From IMG/VR virus record IMGVR_UViG_2778260992_000001: a stretch of 64,000 nucleotides of DNA. One strand, 5' to 3'. Position numbers and translations under genes: made by a program. Origin of the DNA: a virus. Taxonomy: Duplodnaviria > Heunggongvirae > Uroviricota > Caudoviricetes. The notes beneath the pieces were generated by a model. That model searched no databases and was not told the DNA's origin. It saw only the letters and a program-made list of their open reading frames with translations. Below are positions 10,488 to 53,058 of the stretch, one piece after another; the stretch's first letter is position 1, and every line of letters starts with the position of its first letter.

Positions 10488-10549
10488 ATTGTAAGTACAT
10501 ACTTACGATCATAGAATATAAAAATAACCAAAACACTACGGAGAGTGAA

Positions 10550-16407: not shown

Positions 16408-17967
16408 CTAATCTCGTTTCAGAACTCCAAAATCGAATGCTCCATCAATAGGCAATACACCTTCTGCAAAGCCAGGTGTGGTGTCGATGATGTGTTTTCG
16501 CTCATAAGAGTGAGACAACAGGTATTTGTTGCTAATGTCAATGAAATCAGTGATAAAACACACGTTTGCCTGATTTTTTTTGGCTCGTAAGCCACGACCG
16601 ACACGCTGTCTCATTTCAACTTCTGCTTTCCCACCACCAGCAAGAATGACCGCACCAACGCTTGGCACATCAACACCAACATCCAGAATAGTCGAGCCTA
16701 TTAAAACATCTATTTCACCAGACGCTAAACTATTCAGCTTTGCTTGCCTTGTCGTCTGGTTAGATTCCCCATAGATGAAATCAACTTTAAGACCTGACTC
16801 CTTCATCATCTCCATCAGGATTTGCCCGTGGCGTTTAAGACGAACCAGAGTCATGCAGTTGAGTGAATGTTGCTTATAAAGCAATGCCTCGCGCACTATG
16901 GCCTCGTTACGTCCCAAATTATACACGATCCCCAACTGATAAGCCTTTTGGTAGGCGGTGCTCATACCAACTCTAAAATTAAGGTGTTTGTTGGCAAGTT
17001 CCGCCTTGATTCTGACCTCGTCTGGCTTGTAAGCAACTTTATGATAAAGGAAGTACGGTTTTGCCAGAATGCCTCGATCAATCAGGTACTTTTCTGTGAC
17101 TTTAATTTCAATTCGACCGGCCACAGCCATCAGACGCATGTTGGCTTCTGTAGAATCCTTCATGAACGGCGTGGCCGTAAGCGCCAGACGATAGTCTGCG
17201 TTCACACATAATCTGGCAATGTCATAGAAATTAGAGCCTGAAGACTCATGCGCTTCTTCCAGAATAAGCAGAGACACACTTGAAAGGAAGCGTTTCACTA
17301 GCTCCCGACGTTTGAGGTGGTAGCTCTTTTTATCTGGTGTTGCATCGCGTGGTGGTTCTTCAAGGAAACTTGCCAGAGTTTGAACTGTAGCGACGTTGAT
17401 ATGTCGTGATACCTGGAACTCACCCGAGCCAATGACTCCAACCTTTTGGTCTTTTAACCACGGTTCGCCATTTTCGGCGCGGTAGTCGATGGATCTCTGG
17501 AAGTTTTCGGCCATTTGAAACATCAGAACAGAGCGGGTTGTTAAAAATAATGTCATTCGACCGATACGTGCAGCTGCTTTGCAGGCAACGTTAGATTTCC
17601 CGCCACCAGTAGCGATCTGCGCAATCATCATTCCCTCTCGAACCAGTGTTTCCACAGTCTGATCCTGATATGCATAATCAGGATTGTATGGGAATGGGTT
17701 AACCGCCGGATTTGGTTTACCAAGCGCCGGGGCTTTGTCTTTGCGGATATGAACACATTTGATGCCCGCCTTGTTCAAGTTCGCCGCTACAGGCTTGGCA
17801 AAGCCAGCAGGGAACGAGTTTTTACTCCAGTTGAACATCGTGCTTGTGCCCTTCCAGTCGCCAGTCTCGACTTCGTAGCTCAACATTTGCTGCACCAGTT
17901 GCTTTACCTTGTCATCTGCGCCAGAAATAAGCGCATTTACTGCGTTAGATACAATCCGAACAGTCAT
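16408..17967 (-). CDS. SF2 DEAH-type helicase
   Basis: Motif I ATGGGKS, motif II LEEAH, motif III TATP, motif VI QRVGRGLR. Confidence 0.8.
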   Translation of the reverse strand: MTVRIVSNAVNALISGADDKVKQLVQQMLSYEVETGDWKGTSTMFNWSKNSFPAGFAKPVAANLNKAGIKCVHIRKDKAPALGKPNPAVNPFPYNPDYAYQDQTVETLVREGMMIAQIATGGGKSNVACKAAARIGRMTLFLTTRSVLMFQMAENFQRSIDYRAENGEPWLKDQKVGVIGSGEFQVSRHINVATVQTLASFLEEPPRDATPDKKSYHLKRRELVKRFLSSVSLLILEEAHESSGSNFYDIARLCVNADYRLALTATPFMKDSTEANMRLMAVAGRIEIKVTEKYLIDRGILAKPYFLYHKVAYKPDEVRIKAELANKHLNFRVGMSTAYQKAYQLGIVYNLGRNEAIVREALLYKQHSLNCMTLVRLKRHGQILMEMMKESGLKVDFIYGESNQTTRQAKLNSLASGEIDVLIGSTILDVGVDVPSVGAVILAGGGKAEVEMRQRVGRGLRAKKNQANVCFITDFIDISNKYLLSHSYERKHIIDTTPGFAEGVLPIDGAFDFGVLKRD

Positions 17968-18010
17968 AAACCTCTTTCCTTAGTGCCTTTTGTATGTTAT
18001 TTGGCTATTA

Positions 18011-18032
18011 TAATAAGTAAGTGATTACTTAG
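18011..18032. promoter_or_regulatory. class-2 element TAAGTAAGT..TTACTTA
   Basis: TAATAAGTAAGTGATTACTTAG in divergent region between helicase and ParB-like genes. Confidence 0.5.
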
Positions 18033-18049
18033 TGGATTGTAGCAATAAA

Positions 18050-18730
18050 ATGGATGTAAAAATCACGATTTTGCAGGTTGATGTTGCCAACCTTCGCCCG
18101 AATACCTGGAACACCAATTCGGTTGGTGCGCAGAATTTTGAAAAACTGAAAGGTTCTATCGAAAAATTGGGCTTTTTTAAGCCAATTTTGGCTCGTGAAC
18201 TTGAAGATGGATTTTTTGAAATCCTCGGCGGTGAACATCGCTGGCGTGCTGCTATTGAGCAAGGAATTTCAACGGTTCCGGTGCTTTCTGTGGGCAAAAT
18301 TAGCGATGTCGTAGCTAAACAGATGTCACTGGTGGACAACGAGCGATACGGTGAAGACGACCAAATCGCATTGCAACGCTTCATTGAAGAAATTCAGTCA
18401 GAACTTGACTATCAACTGTTTGAAATCGCTCCGTATGACGACGAAATCTCGATGGTTTTAGCAAAAGAGGCGGCAATCGACCTTGAAGCACTGGAGGCGT
18501 TGTCTCGTGGTAGTGATGAGCCTGTCGATACCGACAAACGAGAGAAAACCGAACGTGTGGGTGCGGAACATCAGACCATGCGCTTCAAAGTAACTTTCGA
18601 TGCGTCAGATCGTGTTGCAGAAACCATAAAAAACATCATCAAAGAGCAGGCTATTAACACCGGTAATGAAATGGAGAACGCTGGTGAGGCTCTGGTGTGG
18701 CTGGTCGACTACTACAAGGAGCGTATGTAA
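18050..18730 (+). CDS. ParB/Srx-fold N-terminal domain protein 1
   Basis: GGEHRWRAA arginine-rich motif resembling ParB GERRxRAA box; start moved to ATG 18050. Confidence 0.6.
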   Translation: MDVKITILQVDVANLRPNTWNTNSVGAQNFEKLKGSIEKLGFFKPILARELEDGFFEILGGEHRWRAAIEQGISTVPVLSVGKISDVVAKQMSLVDNERYGEDDQIALQRFIEEIQSELDYQLFEIAPYDDEISMVLAKEAAIDLEALEALSRGSDEPVDTDKREKTERVGAEHQTMRFKVTFDASDRVAETIKNIIKEQAINTGNEMENAGEALVWLVDYYKERM

Positions 18731-19398
18731 TGACCAAAAAGTTTGAAATCGTATATCGCGACCCGGCAGATCTTATTCCCTATGAGATGAATGCCAAAAA
18801 GCATGATGAACAGCAGATCAGAGATCTGGCCGCAGCCATTAAAAAGCGCGGATTTGACCAGCCAATTACGGTCGATAAGAACGACGTAATTATTACTGGC
18901 CACGGCCGCCGTGAGGCTGCAATTTTTGCTGGACTTGAGCGCGTACCGGTTATTGTTCGCGATGATCTCAGTGATGACGAGGTTCGTGCGAAGCGCCTTG
19001 AAGATAACCGACTTGCCAGCATTGATTACGATGCAATTAAGCTACAGAAAGAGCTTGAGTCGCTTGTTCTGGACGATATCGAGGTTTTCGGCTTTGAAGA
19101 GCGTGAGTTGAATGTTCTCGTTGGCAGTATGACAGAAGAAATGGACACCGACTCGCTAGTTATCGATCTTGGCGAAGAAACTAAACGACAGAAGGATGAA
19201 CACACCGAGATCAGTCGTGAAGTTGCAGCGGAAGAAGTACGTGTTGTCGACGTATTGGGCTTTAAAACGCTCCCTGCTGGCTCTGCCATTGTTGTTGGTG
19301 ATTTGCTTGCCCATATGGAAGAAATGACGGGAGAAAGCGGGGTAGACGCATTTGTGGCATATGCGGAGAAGATCTCTTCCGGGGAGATGGCTGCATGA
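18730..19398 (+). CDS. ParB/Srx-fold N-terminal domain protein 2
   Basis: TGHGRREAA motif; start ATG overlaps previous stop (TAATG). Confidence 0.55.
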   Translation: MTKKFEIVYRDPADLIPYEMNAKKHDEQQIRDLAAAIKKRGFDQPITVDKNDVIITGHGRREAAIFAGLERVPVIVRDDLSDDEVRAKRLEDNRLASIDYDAIKLQKELESLVLDDIEVFGFEERELNVLVGSMTEEMDTDSLVIDLGEETKRQKDEHTEISREVAAEEVRVVDVLGFKTLPAGSAIVVGDLLAHMEEMTGESGVDAFVAYAEKISSGEMAA

Positions 19399-20060
19399 GC
19401 AAATACATCATCAACGTATCGTTTCAGACACGCGTAAATAAAACCACGCGCACGTTGGAAATCGCTGAGTCGTTCGGGCTTGGCCTGGACGAAAAAGAGT
19501 GGACGCTTTACGACAATCTGGAGCTGGAAGTGAAGCAGGGCGATGTGGTGTACATCACCGGCCAATCCGGTTCCGGCAAATCCGTTGTGCTGCGCGAGTT
19601 GCAACGACAGATGAAGGATGAAGGGCTGTCTGTAGCCTCCATCGATGATTTTACCTTCGATAATGAGGTTAACGTCATCGATCAGTTGGGCAAAACGACC
19701 AGTGATGCGCTTGGGTTGTTATCTATGGCTGGTCTGAACGATGCATATCTGTTTGTTCGCAAGCCTTCTGAAATGTCAGACGGCCAGAAATATCGTCTCA
19801 AGATTGCCAAACTGATTGAGTCAGGCGCTAAAGTATGGGCTGCTGACGAGTTCGGCGCTGTTCTCGACCGTGTAACCGCTCAGGTTGTGGCGTCTAACCT
19901 CCAGCGTGCCGCTCGAAAGGTTGGTGCGACGGTAATGGTGGCGACGACTCACGAAGACCTGAAGAACGCGCTGCGCCCTGATATGCAGATCACCAAGCAC
20001 TACAAAGAACGCGTGAAGGTGGAATATCACAATGGTAGTCATGATGAGGTCCATTCATGA
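19395..20060 (+). CDS. ABC-type ATPase (soluble, 221 aa)
   Basis: Walker A GQSGSGKS, signature-like SDGQKYR, Walker B VWAADEFG, H-loop ATTHED. Confidence 0.65.
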   Translation: MSKYIINVSFQTRVNKTTRTLEIAESFGLGLDEKEWTLYDNLELEVKQGDVVYITGQSGSGKSVVLRELQRQMKDEGLSVASIDDFTFDNEVNVIDQLGKTTSDALGLLSMAGLNDAYLFVRKPSEMSDGQKYRLKIAKLIESGAKVWAADEFGAVLDRVTAQVVASNLQRAARKVGATVMVATTHEDLKNALRPDMQITKHYKERVKVEYHNGSHDEVHS

Positions 20061-20947
20061 CGGACATCATCATTAAACGCTACCGCCCTGAAGAGTTTCC
20101 GCGTCATCTGGACTTTCTGGAGCGAATGACTGTTACAAAGGGAACTGTAGAGGACTGGCACGCTCTTAAGTCGCTTCACTACAAAACAGACGGCAAACCT
20201 TTCGCGCCAACTTACTATCGCTGCGAACTTGATGACCGTCTGGTGGGCGTCGTGGTTATGGCTTACCCGAAACTACTGTTGGCACCTCGCCACCGCATGT
20301 TTCCTAAGTTGAAACCAACCACTAATACCACCGTGGCTAACCAGTACTGGGGTCGGTACGTGAATAACAACTTTGCGGTGATCAGTCGCTCAGTTGTGGA
20401 TACTCAGTATCGTGGCGTAGGCGTCTCTTATAGAATGATTAACCTGGTTAGCAGGATGCATGACCGGCCAATCATTGAGATCCAGTCCTCGATGAGCAAA
20501 TACAATCCCTTCGCCATGAAAGCAGGGTTTAAGTTCATCCGCCCTGAGCGACCGAAGAGCTATGAAAGTGCACTGCGTGTGTTCCAGCGCCATTTCCGCT
20601 CCGACCCGGGTGATAACGAGGCGATCGTCAAAGAGTTGTTCGCTATGAGCGAGTCTCGTCGTCGCCGTGCGCTGCGCGATTTGGTGGCGGACTACCATAA
20701 GAACAGTTCCCTGGCAAAAGCTGGGCGGAATCGTGGCACGACGATTCAGGACATTGCCGACAGTCTGGTGGACGAGGCCAGCATTGTGAAGCTGCTCAAG
20801 GACATTCACAACCTGAGCTTTACGTCTCCGTTGTATGGTGTGTACCGAAACCCTGACTTTGGCCGTCGACTGCCTGACACGCTGCCACTGCTGGCATTCG
20901 ACAAACAACCTTTGGATAAACCGTTAGAAATTGCTTTACCGGCATAA
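20057..20947 (+). CDS. hypothetical protein, weak acyltransferase-like motif
   Basis: YRGVGVS segment reminiscent of GNAT motif A; weak. Confidence 0.4.
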   Translation: MTDIIIKRYRPEEFPRHLDFLERMTVTKGTVEDWHALKSLHYKTDGKPFAPTYYRCELDDRLVGVVVMAYPKLLLAPRHRMFPKLKPTTNTTVANQYWGRYVNNNFAVISRSVVDTQYRGVGVSYRMINLVSRMHDRPIIEIQSSMSKYNPFAMKAGFKFIRPERPKSYESALRVFQRHFRSDPGDNEAIVKELFAMSESRRRRALRDLVADYHKNSSLAKAGRNRGTTIQDIADSLVDEASIVKLLKDIHNLSFTSPLYGVYRNPDFGRRLPDTLPLLAFDKQPLDKPLEIALPA

Positions 20948-20956
20948 GGATTTGCC

Positions 20957-21223
20957 ATGACGTTAACCGATAAACAAAAGGACATCATCAAAACGCTCAA
21001 TCTCGGTTATGAGCGAGGTCATCTACTTGACCTGGACGAATTGCTTGAAGTTTTGCCGTACAAGACAACCAAGCAAAGTATCCAGTTCTCAATTCGCGCT
21101 CTGATAAAAAAGGGGCTGGTGGAGAAAGGGCATACGCGCCAACGCAGTGACAATCGCTATCACCGCCGGACTCTTGGGTTAACCACTTTAGGTCGAGCCA
21201 AAGCGAAGTTACTGGTGATGTAA
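20957..21223 (+). CDS. small putative DNA-binding protein
   Basis: 88 aa, basic C-terminus; helix-turn-helix-like segment. Confidence 0.4.
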   Translation: MTLTDKQKDIIKTLNLGYERGHLLDLDELLEVLPYKTTKQSIQFSIRALIKKGLVEKGHTRQRSDNRYHRRTLGLTTLGRAKAKLLVM

Positions 21224-21247: not shown

Positions 21248-21302
21248 CCTGCATCTGTATATATAAATAATAAGTAACTTATTAAATATATACGGAAGCA
21301 GG
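21248..21302. repeat. 55-bp near-palindromic element, copy A
   Basis: CCTGCATCTGTATATATAAATAATAAGTAACTTATTAAATATATACGGAAGCAGG; reverse complement matches copy B at 52919 in 53/55 positions. Confidence 0.8.
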
Positions 21303-21337
21303 CTTCGTAAGACATGCCAGACCTAATTAAACACCCC

Positions 21338-21354
21338 AGAAAACAAGTTGGTTA
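21338..21354. promoter_or_regulatory. class-1 palindrome (variant)
   Basis: AGAAAACAAGTTGGTTA. Confidence 0.5.
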
Positions 21355-21363
21355 GCAGATGCA

Positions 21364-21380
21364 GTAAACAAGTTGTTTTA
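21364..21380. promoter_or_regulatory. class-1 palindrome
   Basis: GTAAACAAGTTGTTTTA, about 40 nt upstream of the terminase small subunit candidate. Confidence 0.55.
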
Positions 21381-21418
21381 GAGCGCATGGACGCGCTCTG
21401 TGTGTTTTAGAGGGATCT

Positions 21419-22051
21419 ATGACGGTCGAAAAAGACGAGGTAAAAACTCGCCTGACACCAGCGGAGTGGGCCGAAGCTGAAGCCAAATGGACGTCAGGCG
21501 AATATACACTCTCAAAGCTGGAGGAAGAGTACGGCATTCGTCGTGAAACACTCTCCAGACATTTCAAAAAGCGAGGATTAGAGAAAGGCGCGGACTCTGT
21601 TGGGAAGATGGTTCGTGAGTCTCTTAAATCTGACGCAGAGCTTCGCGCTAAAGCCCGTGCGGAAAAGATAGAAGAACGTCGTACACGTTATGACGGCTGG
21701 GCGTATGCGTTGGGGCAGATGGTGATGGTCGAAGTCACTACGGCCAAACGTGAGGGTAAGCCTTTAGGGGCGATTGAGGATTCTCTCAAGAGCTTACAGA
21801 GAGCCAGTAATACCCTTGCAAAATGCTTTGAAGTTTCGTCCAAAGCATTGGGCATGGATCATGCGGAAAATGACGAGGAAGAAATTCCGAACCTGGTATT
21901 TGGTGAGCTTACGCCTTCCCAGGTGGCGAAATTACGTCAGGAAGACGACGAGCCTGAAATCATCGATGACGAATTGCTTGAGACGTTGGAAGAAGAAGCT
22001 CTAAGCGAATTTGATGCGACAGATGATGGAAGTGAAGGGGAGGACGAATAA
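21419..22051 (+). CDS. terminase small subunit (putative)
   Basis: N-terminal HTH-like segment, acidic C-terminus, immediately upstream of and overlapping terminase large subunit. Confidence 0.6.
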   Translation: MTVEKDEVKTRLTPAEWAEAEAKWTSGEYTLSKLEEEYGIRRETLSRHFKKRGLEKGADSVGKMVRESLKSDAELRAKARAEKIEERRTRYDGWAYALGQMVMVEVTTAKREGKPLGAIEDSLKSLQRASNTLAKCFEVSSKALGMDHAENDEEEIPNLVFGELTPSQVAKLRQEDDEPEIIDDELLETLEEEALSEFDATDDGSEGEDE

Positions 22052-23307
22052 TGGCAATCCCGTCCTCGCTCAGTCTTGTGCAACTGCATTCTGGACAGAT
22101 GAAAGTCTTCCAGTCTCCGCATCGATTTAAAGTTGTTTGTGCTGGTCGACGCTGGGGAAAATCCCGGTTGTCGATCTCCACTATTATTCGTGCGGCGGCA
22201 AAGGAAAAAAAGCAAAGGGTCTGGTATGTCGCTCCTACATACCAGATGGCTCGCCAGATTTTGTGGGACGATCTACAGGAAGTTCTGCCTCGTAAGTGGG
22301 TTAGGAAAAAGAACGACACCACGATGACAATCGTGTTGAAGAACGGTTCGGAGATCGCCCTCAAAGGTGCTGATAAGCCTGACACTCTGCGCGGCGTAGC
22401 GTTGCATTTTGTAGTGCTTGATGAATTTCAGGATATGAAGGCTGACACCTGGTACAAGGTGTTACGACCTACTCTTTCATCGACACGCGGCGGTGCACTG
22501 ATCATTGGTACGCCAAAAGGCTTCTCGGAATTTCACAAACTGTGGACTATAGGCCAGAACGTAGAGCTGCAAAGAAAGGGACAGTGGAAGAGCTGGCAGT
22601 TTGTAACTGCCGATTCTCCGTTTGTACCTACGGCGGAAATTGAAGCTGCTAAGAACGATATGGACCCGAAATCGTTCGCTCAGGAGTACCTGGCGAGCTT
22701 TGAGAACATGTCCGGGCGCGTTTACTACCCGTTCGATCGTAACGTGCATGTAAAACCGCTTCAGTTCAACCCTCGGTTGCCTATATGGGTAGGGCAGGAC
22801 TTCAACATTGACCCGATGTCTTCAGTAATTTTGCAACCTCAGCCAAATGGTGAGCTATGGGCAATTGATGAATTGGTGCTCTTTTCCTCTAACACGGCAG
22901 AGGTTTGTGATGAGCTTGAGAGACGCTTCTGGCGCTGGAAATCACAGATAACGGTATTTCCAGATCCGGCAGGTGCTTATCGCCAACATGCTCGCGGGGA
23001 GTCTGACGTCGACATATTCAAAGAGAAGGGATTCTTACGTGTCGATTATTCGAAAAAGCACCCGCCAATTGCGGATCGTGTTAATGCTGTTAACCGAATG
23101 CTGATGACCGCATCTGGAGATATCCGGCTGTATATCGATCCGAAGTGCAAGCATTTGATTGATTCACTGGAAAAAGTCATCTACAAGCCTGGAACACGAG
23201 ATATGGATAAGACAGGTGGCATTGAGCATAGTGCAGACGCATTGGGCTATCCAGTACATCGTAGGTATCCAGTCAAAAACCGTGTTATTCTTGGTGGTTC
23301 TCGATAG
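22051..23307 (+). CDS. terminase large subunit
   Basis: Walker A-like CAGRRWGKS, Walker B VVLDEF, C-terminal nuclease-like region; followed by portal. Confidence 0.85.
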   Translation: MAIPSSLSLVQLHSGQMKVFQSPHRFKVVCAGRRWGKSRLSISTIIRAAAKEKKQRVWYVAPTYQMARQILWDDLQEVLPRKWVRKKNDTTMTIVLKNGSEIALKGADKPDTLRGVALHFVVLDEFQDMKADTWYKVLRPTLSSTRGGALIIGTPKGFSEFHKLWTIGQNVELQRKGQWKSWQFVTADSPFVPTAEIEAAKNDMDPKSFAQEYLASFENMSGRVYYPFDRNVHVKPLQFNPRLPIWVGQDFNIDPMSSVILQPQPNGELWAIDELVLFSSNTAEVCDELERRFWRWKSQITVFPDPAGAYRQHARGESDVDIFKEKGFLRVDYSKKHPPIADRVNAVNRMLMTASGDIRLYIDPKCKHLIDSLEKVIYKPGTRDMDKTGGIEHSADALGYPVHRRYPVKNRVILGGSR

Positions 23308-50959: not shown

Positions 50960-51628
50960 ATGACCAAGATCTTTGTGGTTGGCGGCACAAAGGGCGGGCC
51001 TGGCAAATCCACCGTTGCCCAGCAAATTGCCGTTTGCCTGAAAGTCAAAAAGAAGAAGAAGGTTTATATCACTGATATAGATATTCAGCGCACGACAACA
51101 AGCTGGTGTGAAGACCGTCGACAGAACGAAGACCTTGAGCTGATTCCTTTTGCATACGTTCAGGATGACATCATTAAGCACCTAAAATCGCTTCAGGGTA
51201 GAGCTGAGTTTGTAGTGGTAGATGCTGGTGGCTTTGACTCCGAAATTCAGCGACAAGCGATGCTGATGGCCGACGTTATCATTATCCCGCTGCGTCCTAA
51301 GCGTCGTGATTTGAAATCTTTACGTGACATCGATCCTATTATCGACAATGTTCGTAATGTAAACGATAAAGTGAAGGTCCGCGCGGTCATGAACCAGTGC
51401 CCGGCTTTGCCATCACAAGTGTCTCGCATTTTGGCGGCTAAAGAGATTGTCGAGACGTTTGGCATCGAGTCTGCGCCAGTCAATTTATATAACCGCAACG
51501 TCTATGATGATGCGGAAGAGTCTGGTCGTTCTATCTTTGAAATGACCGGTAGCGAGCGCGACAAAAAGGCGGAAGCCGAGTTTGAAGAATTTGTAGATTA
51601 TCTGTTGAGTCTGGAGGAAGAAGAATAA
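50960..51628 (+). CDS. ParA/MinD-family partition ATPase
   Basis: Deviant Walker A GGTKGGPGKST; 222 aa; followed by small overlapping gene. Confidence 0.8.
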   Translation: MTKIFVVGGTKGGPGKSTVAQQIAVCLKVKKKKKVYITDIDIQRTTTSWCEDRRQNEDLELIPFAYVQDDIIKHLKSLQGRAEFVVVDAGGFDSEIQRQAMLMADVIIIPLRPKRRDLKSLRDIDPIIDNVRNVNDKVKVRAVMNQCPALPSQVSRILAAKEIVETFGIESAPVNLYNRNVYDDAEESGRSIFEMTGSERDKKAEAEFEEFVDYLLSLEEEE

Positions 51629-51987
51629 TGTCCATGAAAATGGGTGACCTAGCAAAGCGCAAAGAGCCTGATGCACCGGCTAAGAACACAACTCCTTTGC
51701 GCCAACCAGTCAGACCACAGGGACGCCCGACTCGTGGCAAAGAGAAAATTAAAAGCCGCACAATGTCACTGGAGGACGAATACTTCGAACTGCTGGAGAT
51801 GATGAAGTTCATCCCTCGCTTCGAGAAGTTCACTCGTTCTGACGTGATTCGAGCAGCCATTTTCCATCTGGCAGAGAAGTCACCGCAGGAAATCGAGGAC
51901 ATCGTGAAATTGAATGAGGCGATCACCGCTGCCGATGTCACGATGCGTACCGATGAAATCAAACGAGAGTTGATGAAGAAAGGTTAA
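51628..51987 (+). CDS. ParG-like ribbon-helix-helix centromere-binding protein (putative)
   Basis: 119 aa, basic Pro/Arg-rich N-terminal tail, C-terminal RHH-like segment; start overlaps parA stop. Confidence 0.5.
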   Translation: MSMKMGDLAKRKEPDAPAKNTTPLRQPVRPQGRPTRGKEKIKSRTMSLEDEYFELLEMMKFIPRFEKFTRSDVIRAAIFHLAEKSPQEIEDIVKLNEAITAADVTMRTDEIKRELMKKG

Positions 51988-52039: not shown

Positions 52040-52807
52040 TTATGCCGCGCTAACACTATGTTCAGTCCTAACCACTCCAACCTTCACAAAAGGGCTACCG
52101 TAGCTTGGTGGCTTCTTGATTAATTTGCCAACATACAGTTTTCTAATATGCTCATCGGCTATTCTGCCAACAAATTCATAACGTTTTGTGTCGGGGCCAA
52201 GAGCTATATCCCTTGTAAAGTACTGCTGAGAACCGGCTTTGACCCAGCATTCAATCTGATAAACTTCCATTATCAGCCCACCATATGTAGCGTAGGCATA
52301 TTTGAGATTCTCGTCTCTTGGAACCTTTGCCCATACGCCACGCGTAGCTTCATATAATGCCAGAGCGGACATTCCTGACTTGTAGGTGCTGTTTAGCAGG
52401 AAGGCAAGACCGGCGTGCTCAGGAGCAATTTCAGTTTCCTCTTGCAGCACTAAGTGATGGTAGGCGTCCAGTGATATTCTGCCCATCATGGAACCACTTC
52501 CTCGTACCTTATTCGTAAGCTCTCCGACCCCCATAAGGTCGATGCATGTCGCCTCAACAAGTTTGGCTGTGGTTTCATCCATACCATGACGAAGTATATC
52601 TATGCCTAATTTTTTATTAGCCAAAAGTTCTTTGATCCGCATGGATTTGGGAGAGTCATCGGGATACTTGATGTGATCGAGACAACGAGTCGATTTGCCT
52701 TTTCCTATGTAAAACGGTCTTTTCATCTTGTCTTCTGTATCATAGAGACAGTAAACATAGTATTTAGCCTTATCCAATGATCTCGCGTATACCGATAAAT
52801 CGTCCAT
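52040..52807 (-). CDS. GIY-YIG nuclease-domain protein (possible homing endonuclease)
   Basis: N-terminal YVYCLYD..(11)..PFYIGKGK motif; opposite strand to neighbours. Confidence 0.6.
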   Translation of the reverse strand: MDDLSVYARSLDKAKYYVYCLYDTEDKMKRPFYIGKGKSTRCLDHIKYPDDSPKSMRIKELLANKKLGIDILRHGMDETTAKLVEATCIDLMGVGELTNKVRGSGSMMGRISLDAYHHLVLQEETEIAPEHAGLAFLLNSTYKSGMSALALYEATRGVWAKVPRDENLKYAYATYGGLIMEVYQIECWVKAGSQQYFTRDIALGPDTKRYEFVGRIADEHIRKLYVGKLIKKPPSYGSPFVKVGVVRTEHSVSAA

Positions 52808-52918: not shown

Positions 52919-52973
52919 CCTGCTTCTGTATATATTTAATAAGTTACTTATTATTTATATATACAGAAGCAGG
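52919..52973. repeat. 55-bp near-palindromic element, copy B (inverted copy of A)
   Basis: CCTGCTTCTGTATATATTTAATAAGTTACTTATTATTTATATATACAGAAGCAGG. Confidence 0.8.
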
Positions 52974-53058
52974 TCTTTTAAAAAGACACCCACCAGAACA
53001 ACTCCCTTCCGTTTCCACTTCCAAAAACTGTCACCAGTCGCTATCATCCGCTCATTGT

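Follow-up and report, generated by a model that had tools for sequence, protein, structure and literature searches.

What two different ParB-fold proteins, an ATPase and an acyltransferase-like protein could be doing together in front of the terminase genes of a tailed phage is the question raised by a locus in the IMG/VR virus record IMGVR_UViG_2778260992_000001 (Caudoviricetes). The stretch of DNA that was analysed, 64,000 nucleotides long and hereafter called the window, carries at positions 18050-20947 four open reading frames (ORFs) on the plus strand. They encode ParB1 (18050-18730; 226 amino acids (aa), with the ATG chosen as start and a GTG present at 18032), ParB2 (18730-19398; 222 aa), a soluble ABC ATPase (19395-20060; 221 aa, gene 3) and a basic GNAT-fold protein (20057-20947; 296 aa, gene 4). 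The four genes had been described as coupled in a first-pass annotation of the sequence, and all four ORFs were confirmed with overlapping ends, the junctions being TAATG (ParB1/ParB2), ATGA (ParB2/ABC) and ATGA (ABC/GNAT). The analysis reported here indicates that they very probably constitute a single system that is not a partition system, and that its target may be DNA.

Genes 3 and 4 had been regarded as encoding unrelated partners. Judged by homology, they are instead the two halves of one protein, that is, the split form of a widespread viral ABC-GNAT fusion. A profile search with gene 4 among 1.8 billion representative proteins returned 953 relatives, of which the distant ones are mostly 450-500 aa long, with an ABC domain at the N-terminus and a GNAT domain at the C-terminus. 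Homology to the halves of these fusions extends along the full length of genes 3 and 4, in identical order, and a single PHROG profile, phrog_11143, covers both, the ABC ATPase matching profile positions 2-185 and the GNAT protein positions 205-252. The residues conserved in the family of genes 3 and 4 and in the fusions are an HY pair, R78, R111, R119/G122, E141 and a C-terminal Y-x-x-x-x-N-P motif. The split into two genes overlapping by ATGA is found here and throughout the SSU5/Nickievirus clade. One ABC-GNAT member contains an intein with a LAGLIDADG endonuclease inside its ABC domain (among L012-L014, L182, L183 and protein P0163).

Both halves look catalytically competent from their conserved motifs. 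The ATPase, correctly seen as compact and soluble by the first-pass annotation, matches ABC_tran (PF00005; E 5.8e-13, 50.1 bits against a cut-off of 25) and has a complete set of motifs, namely Walker A GQSGSGKS, signature SDGQ, Walker B VWAADE and H-loop TTHE. The 296-aa protein, with an isoelectric point of 9.8, has a GNAT fold followed by a conserved C-terminal extension, which places its earlier description as acyltransferase-like on much firmer ground than the sequence alone had allowed. It scores 14.4 bits against the Pfam GNAT family (gathering threshold 23.6), and a homologous GNAT ORF (7118-7606 of L187) passes the cut-offs of PF00583, PF13508 and PF13673. GNAT motif A (R/Q-x-x-G-x-G/A), which contacts the pyrophosphate of CoA, reads R119-G-V-G122-V-S124; R119 and G122 never vary, position 124 is occupied by S, A or G, and the equivalent R320 and G323 are invariant in the ABC-GNAT fusions. 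A PDB sequence search with the gene 4 profile gave nothing meaningful, and NCBIfam holds no family for gene 4, while its transporter families match gene 3 only far below their cut-offs.

The ParB assignments were likewise verified. Pfam ParB_N (PF02195) is matched above its curated cut-off by ParB1 (E 3.3e-13) and ParB2 (E 1.3e-8), and the two arginine boxes noticed earlier were located at residues 60-68 of ParB1 (GGEHRWRAA) and 56-64 of ParB2 (TGHGRREAA). The arginine motif GxxR takes the form GG[EQH]HR in ParB1 and GHGR in ParB2, and the phosphate-binding motif DNxR is also present. Across 45 ParB1 orthologs, R64, N97 and R99 are invariant, these being residue types used by ParB for nucleoside triphosphate (NTP) binding. 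ParB1 and ParB2 are paralogous from end to end (hhalign probability 98.8%, 193 columns). The structure model of ParB1, with a predicted local distance difference test score (pLDDT) of 81, comprises a confident nucleotide-binding domain (residues ~1-116) that matches PadC, the N-terminal part of pNOB8 ParB, KorB and sulfiredoxin, an acidic, disordered linker (142-172, pLDDT < 50) and a small, conserved and confident C-terminal domain (173-226) made of two helices after a conserved extended segment. The strand-helix-helix order of this last domain brought a ribbon-helix-helix fold to mind, which was set aside as neither PDB profiles nor Pfam supported it.

Neither protein resembles a partition ParB beyond the nucleotide-binding fold. 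No match to HTH_ParB (PF17762) was obtained for ParB1 or ParB2 at E values up to 0.1, whereas the canonical ParBs of loci L179 and L184 do match this family, and in the ParB1 model the acidic disordered stretch occupies the place where a canonical ParB has its helix-turn-helix. The ParA-binding motif [LFI]G[KR]G[LFI] is missing from both. ParB2 matches phrog_930 (E 1e-112), phrog_498, labelled 'DNA methyltransferase' (E 1.7e-31), and the PADLOC profile MTase_II (E 2.9e-17). Its nucleotide-binding domain is of the type that is fused to DNA methyltransferases in other phages, and ParB2 itself is devoid of a methyltransferase domain. Orthologs of ParB2 are nevertheless labelled 'DNA methyltransferase' or 'DNA modification methylase' (among the records NC_042091.1, NC_034248.1, PV340561.1 and MF554642.1), and they lack that domain as well.

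A strong indication that the four genes belong together came from other viruses. In the proteins P0224, P0226, P0194 and P0223 (666-699 aa), ParB_N, a Zn-ribbon, ABC and GNAT domains follow one another in one chain. The N-terminal domain of these triple fusions is a ParB according to the ParB1 and ParB2 profiles (E 1e-8 to 1e-4; hhalign 95.6%) and to a PDB search (ParB structures 7bnk, E 1e-4, and 5k5a, E 8e-4); it has the motifs NPN and DGEQR and precedes the Zn-ribbon. An earlier scan of viral contigs had yielded near-identical loci only. When a triple fusion was used as query, 36 loci were recovered, in 21 of which ParB, ABC and GNAT are adjacent, as three separate ORFs in 20 of these 21. 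The occurrence of ParB, ABC and GNAT in a single chain is strong evidence that the separately encoded proteins of the window work together.

The module is also conserved as a unit. The window is an SSU5-like phage-plasmid; the segment analysed shows identities of 99.1% to Escherichia phage Cyrano and 85.5% to Salmonella phage SSU5. The first-pass annotation had asked whether the module co-occurs across related phages, and its order was found to be kept in all six distant loci examined. The conserved arrangement runs from a divergent helicase through ParB, ParB, ABC, GNAT, a gene of 87-113 aa and a gap to the candidate small terminase, large terminase and portal genes, sometimes with one to three small inserts between ABC and GNAT. 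With gene 4 homologs at 41-46% identity, it was seen in three metagenomic or genomic contigs as well as in Pseudomonas phage nickie, Rhizobium phage RHEph10 and Stenotrophomonas phage BUCTxx99. Of the records of isolated phages, 31 contain gene 4 (12 SSU5-like phages and 19 siphoviruses of ~105-122 kb), all of which also carry gene 3, for which 39 matches were found altogether. The module is thus a core gene set of SSU5/Nickievirus-like siphoviruses, directly upstream of the terminase genes.

The module matches 772 plasmids of PLSDB, with coverage of at least 80% of the query in 719 cases. They are mainly from Klebsiella, Escherichia, Enterobacter, Yersinia and Salmonella, and 740 are non-mobilizable. 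It is present in 248 of 5,426 complete E. coli genomes (4.6%), plasmid-borne every time. The earlier view of the module has to be revised in one respect: the four proteins belong to the established PHROG families 723, 930, 293 and 886 and are core genes of a known phage group. The labels of these families are uninformative or wrong ('ParB-like partition protein', 'ABC transporter', 'ABC transporter ATP-binding subunit'), and the last of them is widely attached to gene 4, whose product has a GNAT fold and no ATPase motifs. Literature searches on SSU5 with ParB/ABC and on COG2401 returned no functional study of the module, and the Cyrano paper is silent about it.

On what, then, would such a system act? 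Several comparative observations point to DNA. In 5/5 other loci tested, the ParB subtype found in the triple fusions is joined to an N6_N4 DNA methyltransferase; one ParB domain type is thus combined either with a DNA methyltransferase or with an ABC-GNAT unit. At the triple-fusion locus of P0223, a DNA methyltransferase gene lies on each side. Elsewhere the ABC-GNAT unit is fused to replisome proteins. In P0204 (1,260 aa; 35 collection blocks listed, 24 contigs read) it is joined to a family-B DNA polymerase (PolB), and the fusion gene (8001-11783 in L012-L014) lies inside the replication module of a phage lineage that recurs across many metagenomes. Two short metagenomic contigs encode the unit joined to the C-terminal domain of Gins51, an archaeal replisome protein, and the unit is also found inside an SPbeta-like replication module.

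A second set of associations concerns the large terminase, beside which the ABC-GNAT unit lies in three separate virus groups. In the SSU5 clade the unit is upstream of the terminase genes, in the lineage of two-domain fusions the ABC-GNAT gene directly follows the large terminase gene in 38/72 loci, and the triple-fusion or three-gene form is found at most 1.5 kb upstream of the large terminase gene in 18/21 loci. All phage DNA passes through the replisome and the terminase, and a DNA-directed enzyme would account for both associations in one idea. DNA modification, one of three functions put forward in the first-pass annotation together with anti-defence and packaging, and there without a mechanism, therefore gains real comparative support from the fusions, the exchange of methyltransferase and ABC-GNAT on one ParB subtype and the replisome-protein fusions, although the function itself remains a prediction. 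We put the chance that the target of the module is DNA at a little under even.

Several observations weigh against this reading. In the literature searched, no modified base has been reported for SSU5-like phages, and according to a study of the Mom protein of phage Mu, simple N-acyl groups on adenine N6 are chemically unstable (PMC13219725). The closest structures to the 296-aa protein are RimI- and Naa-type protein N-acetyltransferases and small-molecule N-acetyltransferases, Mom ranking only 20th. No DNA-binding domain was identified by Pfam or PDB profile searches in ParB1, ParB2 or the C-terminal extension of the GNAT protein, and the linkage to terminase and replisome would fit a protein target too. 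Phage pT24 is the example given for the ABC-coupled GNAT that Iyer, Aravind and co-workers predicted to modify a DNA base by acylation (PMC7824862, which cites their 2013 survey); in pT24 our profiles detect the ABC (E 2e-40) and miss the GNAT part. Finally, ABC-GNAT units with no ParB nearby are common, a ParB being found near only 1/72 loci of one large lineage; ParB is therefore an accessory to ABC-GNAT.

If DNA is nevertheless the target, the four proteins could act as one machine, a ParB-assisted, NTP-gated ABC-GNAT acyltransferase whose substrate would be the double-stranded DNA of the phage itself, around the steps of replication and packaging. ParB1 and ParB2, which might form a heterodimer, would be nucleotide-gated activators or targeting subunits. 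This role is modelled on the phage ParB of 5mYOX176 and on the presumed role of ParB in ParB-methyltransferase fusions. A phage ParB that has no DNA-binding domain activates the thymine dioxygenase 5mYOX176, a DNA base-modifying enzyme, on double-stranded DNA (PMC13229309, PNAS 2026). ATP-driven dimerisation of the ABC subunit would gate or power the engagement of the basic GNAT subunit with DNA, and the GNAT would load a DNA base with an acyl group taken from acyl-CoA or, in the manner of Mom, with an aminoacyl group taken from a charged tRNA. The base would be modified before packaging, and the modified DNA would be shielded from host nucleases. We offer only tentatively, as a conjecture that has rather more chance of being wrong than right, the full proposal that SSU5-like phage-plasmids carry an acyl or aminoacyl base modification made at the replication-to-packaging step by the first known ATP- and NTP-gated DNA acyltransferase, and that the same family marks DNA in many uncultured bacterial and archaeal viruses.

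The neighbourhood of the terminase genes can also be read as pointing to packaging itself. The complex might prepare or mark the packaging start site or the concatemer, or acylate the terminase, the portal or a DNA-bound protein, with no genome-wide base modification. The positions of the module in the SSU5 clade, of the fused gene after the large terminase and of the triple-fusion or three-gene form before it would all suit such a role, as would the conserved 55-bp palindrome and the direct repeats between the module and the terminase genes described below. Phage DNA methyltransferases often adjoin terminase genes as well, and the position beside the terminase therefore does not discriminate. 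The PolB and Gins51 fusions and the placement in replication modules argue against a packaging-specific role, and the exchange with DNA methyltransferases suggests enzymatic marking of DNA. We regard a packaging accessory as unlikely, at somewhat less than one chance in five.

Another explanation takes the structural matches at face value. The GNAT would acetylate a protein of the host or of the phage (a nucleoid protein, part of the replisome or RNA polymerase, for example) and in this way redirect the cell, and the ABC and ParB subunits would regulate it. The best matches of the model are to RimI- and Naa-type enzymes, phage GNATs such as Rac acetylate host RNA polymerase (PMC7824862), and the fusions with PolB and Gins51 might serve to hold the enzyme at a protein target. 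On the other side, the ParB type that co-occurs with or is fused to the unit is otherwise joined to DNA methyltransferases, and the location near the terminase genes in three virus groups speaks for co-expression with the packaging genes and not for a part in early host takeover. Moreover, there is no candidate target conserved across the hosts, which range from those of archaea-like viruses to enterobacteria. About one chance in seven seems appropriate for a protein acetyltransferase.

GNAT toxins acetylate aminoacyl-tRNA, and Mom binds charged tRNA, so that small nucleic acids come into consideration too. The GNAT would then acylate charged tRNA, nucleotides or signalling nucleotides as an anti-defence measure, while the ParBs hydrolysed or sensed NTPs. 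The basic character of the GNAT subunit agrees with this, as does the fact that CTP, ATP or GTP is bound by ParB-fold proteins, among which there are kinases and NTPases. However, a PADLOC scan of seven proteins gave no defence or anti-defence match, only generic P-loop/ATPase, helicase and ParB-methyltransferase matches, and the module is a strictly conserved core set of a phage clade, unlike the variable cargo typical of anti-defence genes. The PolB and GINS fusions also suit a DNA-bound role better. An anti-defence function of this kind is improbable, with odds of about ten to one against it.

Plasmid partition or centromere binding, suggested by the database name 'ParB-like partition protein', would agree with the ParB fold and its conserved arginine motifs, with the low-copy plasmid state of the element (a mean copy number of 5.5 per cell has been reported for Cyrano) and with palindromes that could be binding sites. 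The first-pass annotation had already doubted it, rightly. The module is kept in the same order in Nickievirus phages, which have been reported as predicted lytic or without temperate behaviour, the element has its own ParA operon elsewhere (50960-51987, 32 kb from the module and not adjacent to it), and the ParBs have neither a helix-turn-helix nor a ParA-binding motif; partition is therefore rejected as very improbable. The fusion of ParB to ABC-GNAT in other viruses also speaks against it. That genes 3 and 4 are ABC transporter subunits, as annotated in many records, can be dismissed almost entirely: the ATPase does resemble transporter nucleotide-binding domains in sequence, yet no NCBIfam equivalog threshold is reached, the label of gene 4 is wrong as noted above, and the operon partners are ParB and GNAT proteins instead of permeases.

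The surroundings of the module are as follows. The gene for an SF2 (UvsW-like) helicase (16408-17967, minus strand; Pfam ResIII, DEAD and Helicase_C) is divergent from the module, as the first-pass annotation had stated, and an 82-bp divergent control region (17968-18049) that contains the palindrome TAAGTAAGTGATTACTTA at 18014-18031 separates it from ParB1. Its divergent position is kept in 6/6 distant loci examined; the helicase is a constant neighbour and a possible member of the system. In distant relatives, a dCMP/cytidine deaminase gene is found a few genes past the divergent helicase (4695-5183 of L002; 3108-3569 of L003), and one of them also has anaerobic ribonucleotide reductase genes past it (1-2486 of L003).

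Downstream, the GNAT gene is followed by a gene for an 88-aa protein (20957-21223, plus strand; phrog_900, E 1.9e-45), possibly a winged-helix protein on the basis of weak, sub-threshold matches to LexA_DNA_bind and Lrs14/Sta1-type domains. A gene of 87-113 aa is in the matching position in all six distant loci, and no homology was found between the 88-aa genes beside the SSU5-type module and those beside the triple fusion. The candidate small terminase subunit (21419-22051, plus strand; phrog_867) and the large terminase subunit (22051-23307, plus strand; PHROG, and Pfam Terminase_6N and Terminase_3) come next. Elsewhere in the window, the ParA/ParG pair reported at 51 kb was found in part: a ParA-type ATPase is encoded at 50960-51628, translationally coupled to a 119-aa protein at 51628-51987, for which no Pfam match was obtained and ParG is a putative name. 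The segment 62001-64000 has a GC content of 0.37, against 0.43-0.51 elsewhere in the window, and may be cargo or a foreign segment.

A family of 14-18 bp palindromes (TAAGTAnnTACTTA and variants) gives 10 TAAGT-N-ACTTA matches in the window where 0.95 are expected, with copies at 10492, 18018, 24812, 30307, 43731, 57630 and 60989, the one at 18018 being between the helicase and ParB1 genes. This over-representation suggests a common operator of one regulator. A near-palindrome of 55 bp, CCTGCATCTGTATATATAAATAATAAGTAACTTATTAAATATATACGGAAGCAGG, lies at 21248-21302, past the 88-aa gene and ahead of the candidate small terminase gene. A second, inverted copy (53/55 identical) is found at 52920-52974, in a divergent intergenic region ~0.9 kb beyond the parA operon and just before a DnaB-like helicase region. 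Beside this copy, a 255-aa protein with a LEM-3-like GIY-YIG nuclease domain is encoded at 52040-52807 on the minus strand. SSU5 retains the 55-bp palindrome with an arm change that makes the outer arms perfectly complementary, and the element may serve as an operator, origin or centromere, or may be bound by the ParB proteins.

The GenBank records of SSU5 and Cyrano are both linearised inside the 55-bp palindrome. Their ends were considered as a cos or pac site and this was dropped, since convention or assembly is the likelier cause of a break inside the palindrome. From the record of Nican01, for which a long direct terminal repeat has been reported and which was re-ordered to begin with the large terminase gene, no terminus position can be read. 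Between the palindrome and the candidate small terminase gene, positions 21337-21400 contain two direct repeats AAACAAGTTGnTT, 25 bp apart, and a GC-rich hairpin with a T-run (21379-21400) directly preceding the ribosome-binding site of that gene. SSU5 keeps the repeats and the hairpin with compensatory changes. This element could be a late-operon control, that is, a terminator under antitermination, or part of the packaging site.

If the module does modify DNA, it would add both ATP-dependent acyl transfer chemistry and a new enzyme architecture to the DNA modifications of phages, and would extend to a further type of enzyme the activation of DNA modification by ParB-fold proteins that was demonstrated recently. 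A hidden DNA mark, if true, could have consequences for restriction barriers, for the host range of phage-plasmids that carry resistance and for methylome surveys that rely on sequencing, because the module is present in the 772 plasmids and 4.6% of E. coli genomes given above; it thereby reaches clinical Klebsiella, E. coli, Yersinia and Salmonella, where such plasmids number in the hundreds. In any case, the labels now in use ('partition protein', 'DNA methyltransferase' and 'ABC transporter') are misleading. Cyrano and SSU5 are culturable and the four-gene cassette measures 2.9 kb, which makes the question directly testable.

Compared with known systems, the module has the nucleotide-binding fold and the GxxR arginine and DNxR motifs in common with ParABS and the KorB-type CTP clamps, whereas the helix-turn-helix, the ParA-interaction motif and an adjacent ParA that characterise ParABS are all lacking, and the module is found in phages reported as lytic. 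In DpdA/DpdB and DndB systems, a ParB-fold NTPase is an accessory or regulatory part of 7-deazaguanine or phosphorothioate modification of DNA. The first-pass annotation had seen no partner enzyme of the Dnd, Ssp or Dpd type, and indeed none of DndA, DndC-E, SspA-D, DpdA and DpdC was present in the PADLOC scan of seven proteins. The RNA cytidine acetyltransferase family TmcA/NAT10, in which an ATPase is coupled to a GNAT that acetylates a nucleic-acid base, provides an analogy for an acyltransferase that needs ATP, although its ATPase is helicase-like instead of ABC-type and its substrate is RNA. It was not among the top 60 structural matches of the GNAT protein.

Mom has a GNAT fold and uses Gly-tRNA as donor to attach glycine to adenine N6 in double-stranded DNA (PMC13219725). 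It works without an ATPase or ParB partner and is not a specific relative of the 296-aa protein, as ~19 ordinary acetyltransferases score higher. A 2025 survey described ParB-fold domains fused to methyltransferases as common in phages and a ParB-acetyltransferase fusion that binds GTP (PMC12704722). The N-terminal domain of the ParB-N6/N4 methyltransferase fusions is the one matched by ParB2, whereas the module has no methyltransferase and encodes its ABC and GNAT partner separately. The likeness to 5mYOX176 and ParB176 is one of architecture. ParB176 likewise joins an NTP-binding domain to a middle region that is partly disordered and a small C-terminal domain, shows no obvious DNA-binding domain and is required by the enzyme on double-stranded DNA, and the existence of both ParB-dependent and ParB-independent subclasses of these dioxygenases (PMC13229309) mirrors that of ABC-GNAT units with and without ParB. 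Its partner is an Fe/2-oxoglutarate dioxygenase served by one ParB, in place of an ATPase-coupled acyltransferase with two.

The closest family is COG2401 ('MK0520, ABC-type ATPase fused to a predicted acetyltransferase domain'), both halves of which have homologs here, the Cyrano record placing the COG name on gene 4. Its fusions are single polypeptides, whereas the module consists of two genes plus two ParB paralogs, and its published function is a prediction. The idea of DNA modification has thus been published before as a prediction, and no earlier link to the four-gene arrangement of the SSU5 type was found. The module is best described, as far as sequence comparison can tell, as a split, double-ParB variant of this uncharacterised, earlier predicted ParB/ABC-GNAT DNA-modification system. 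New here are the split form, the link of ParB, ABC and GNAT in one chain, the order kept at ~40% identity, the ties to terminase, PolB and GINS, and the ParB subtype shared with DNA methyltransferases.

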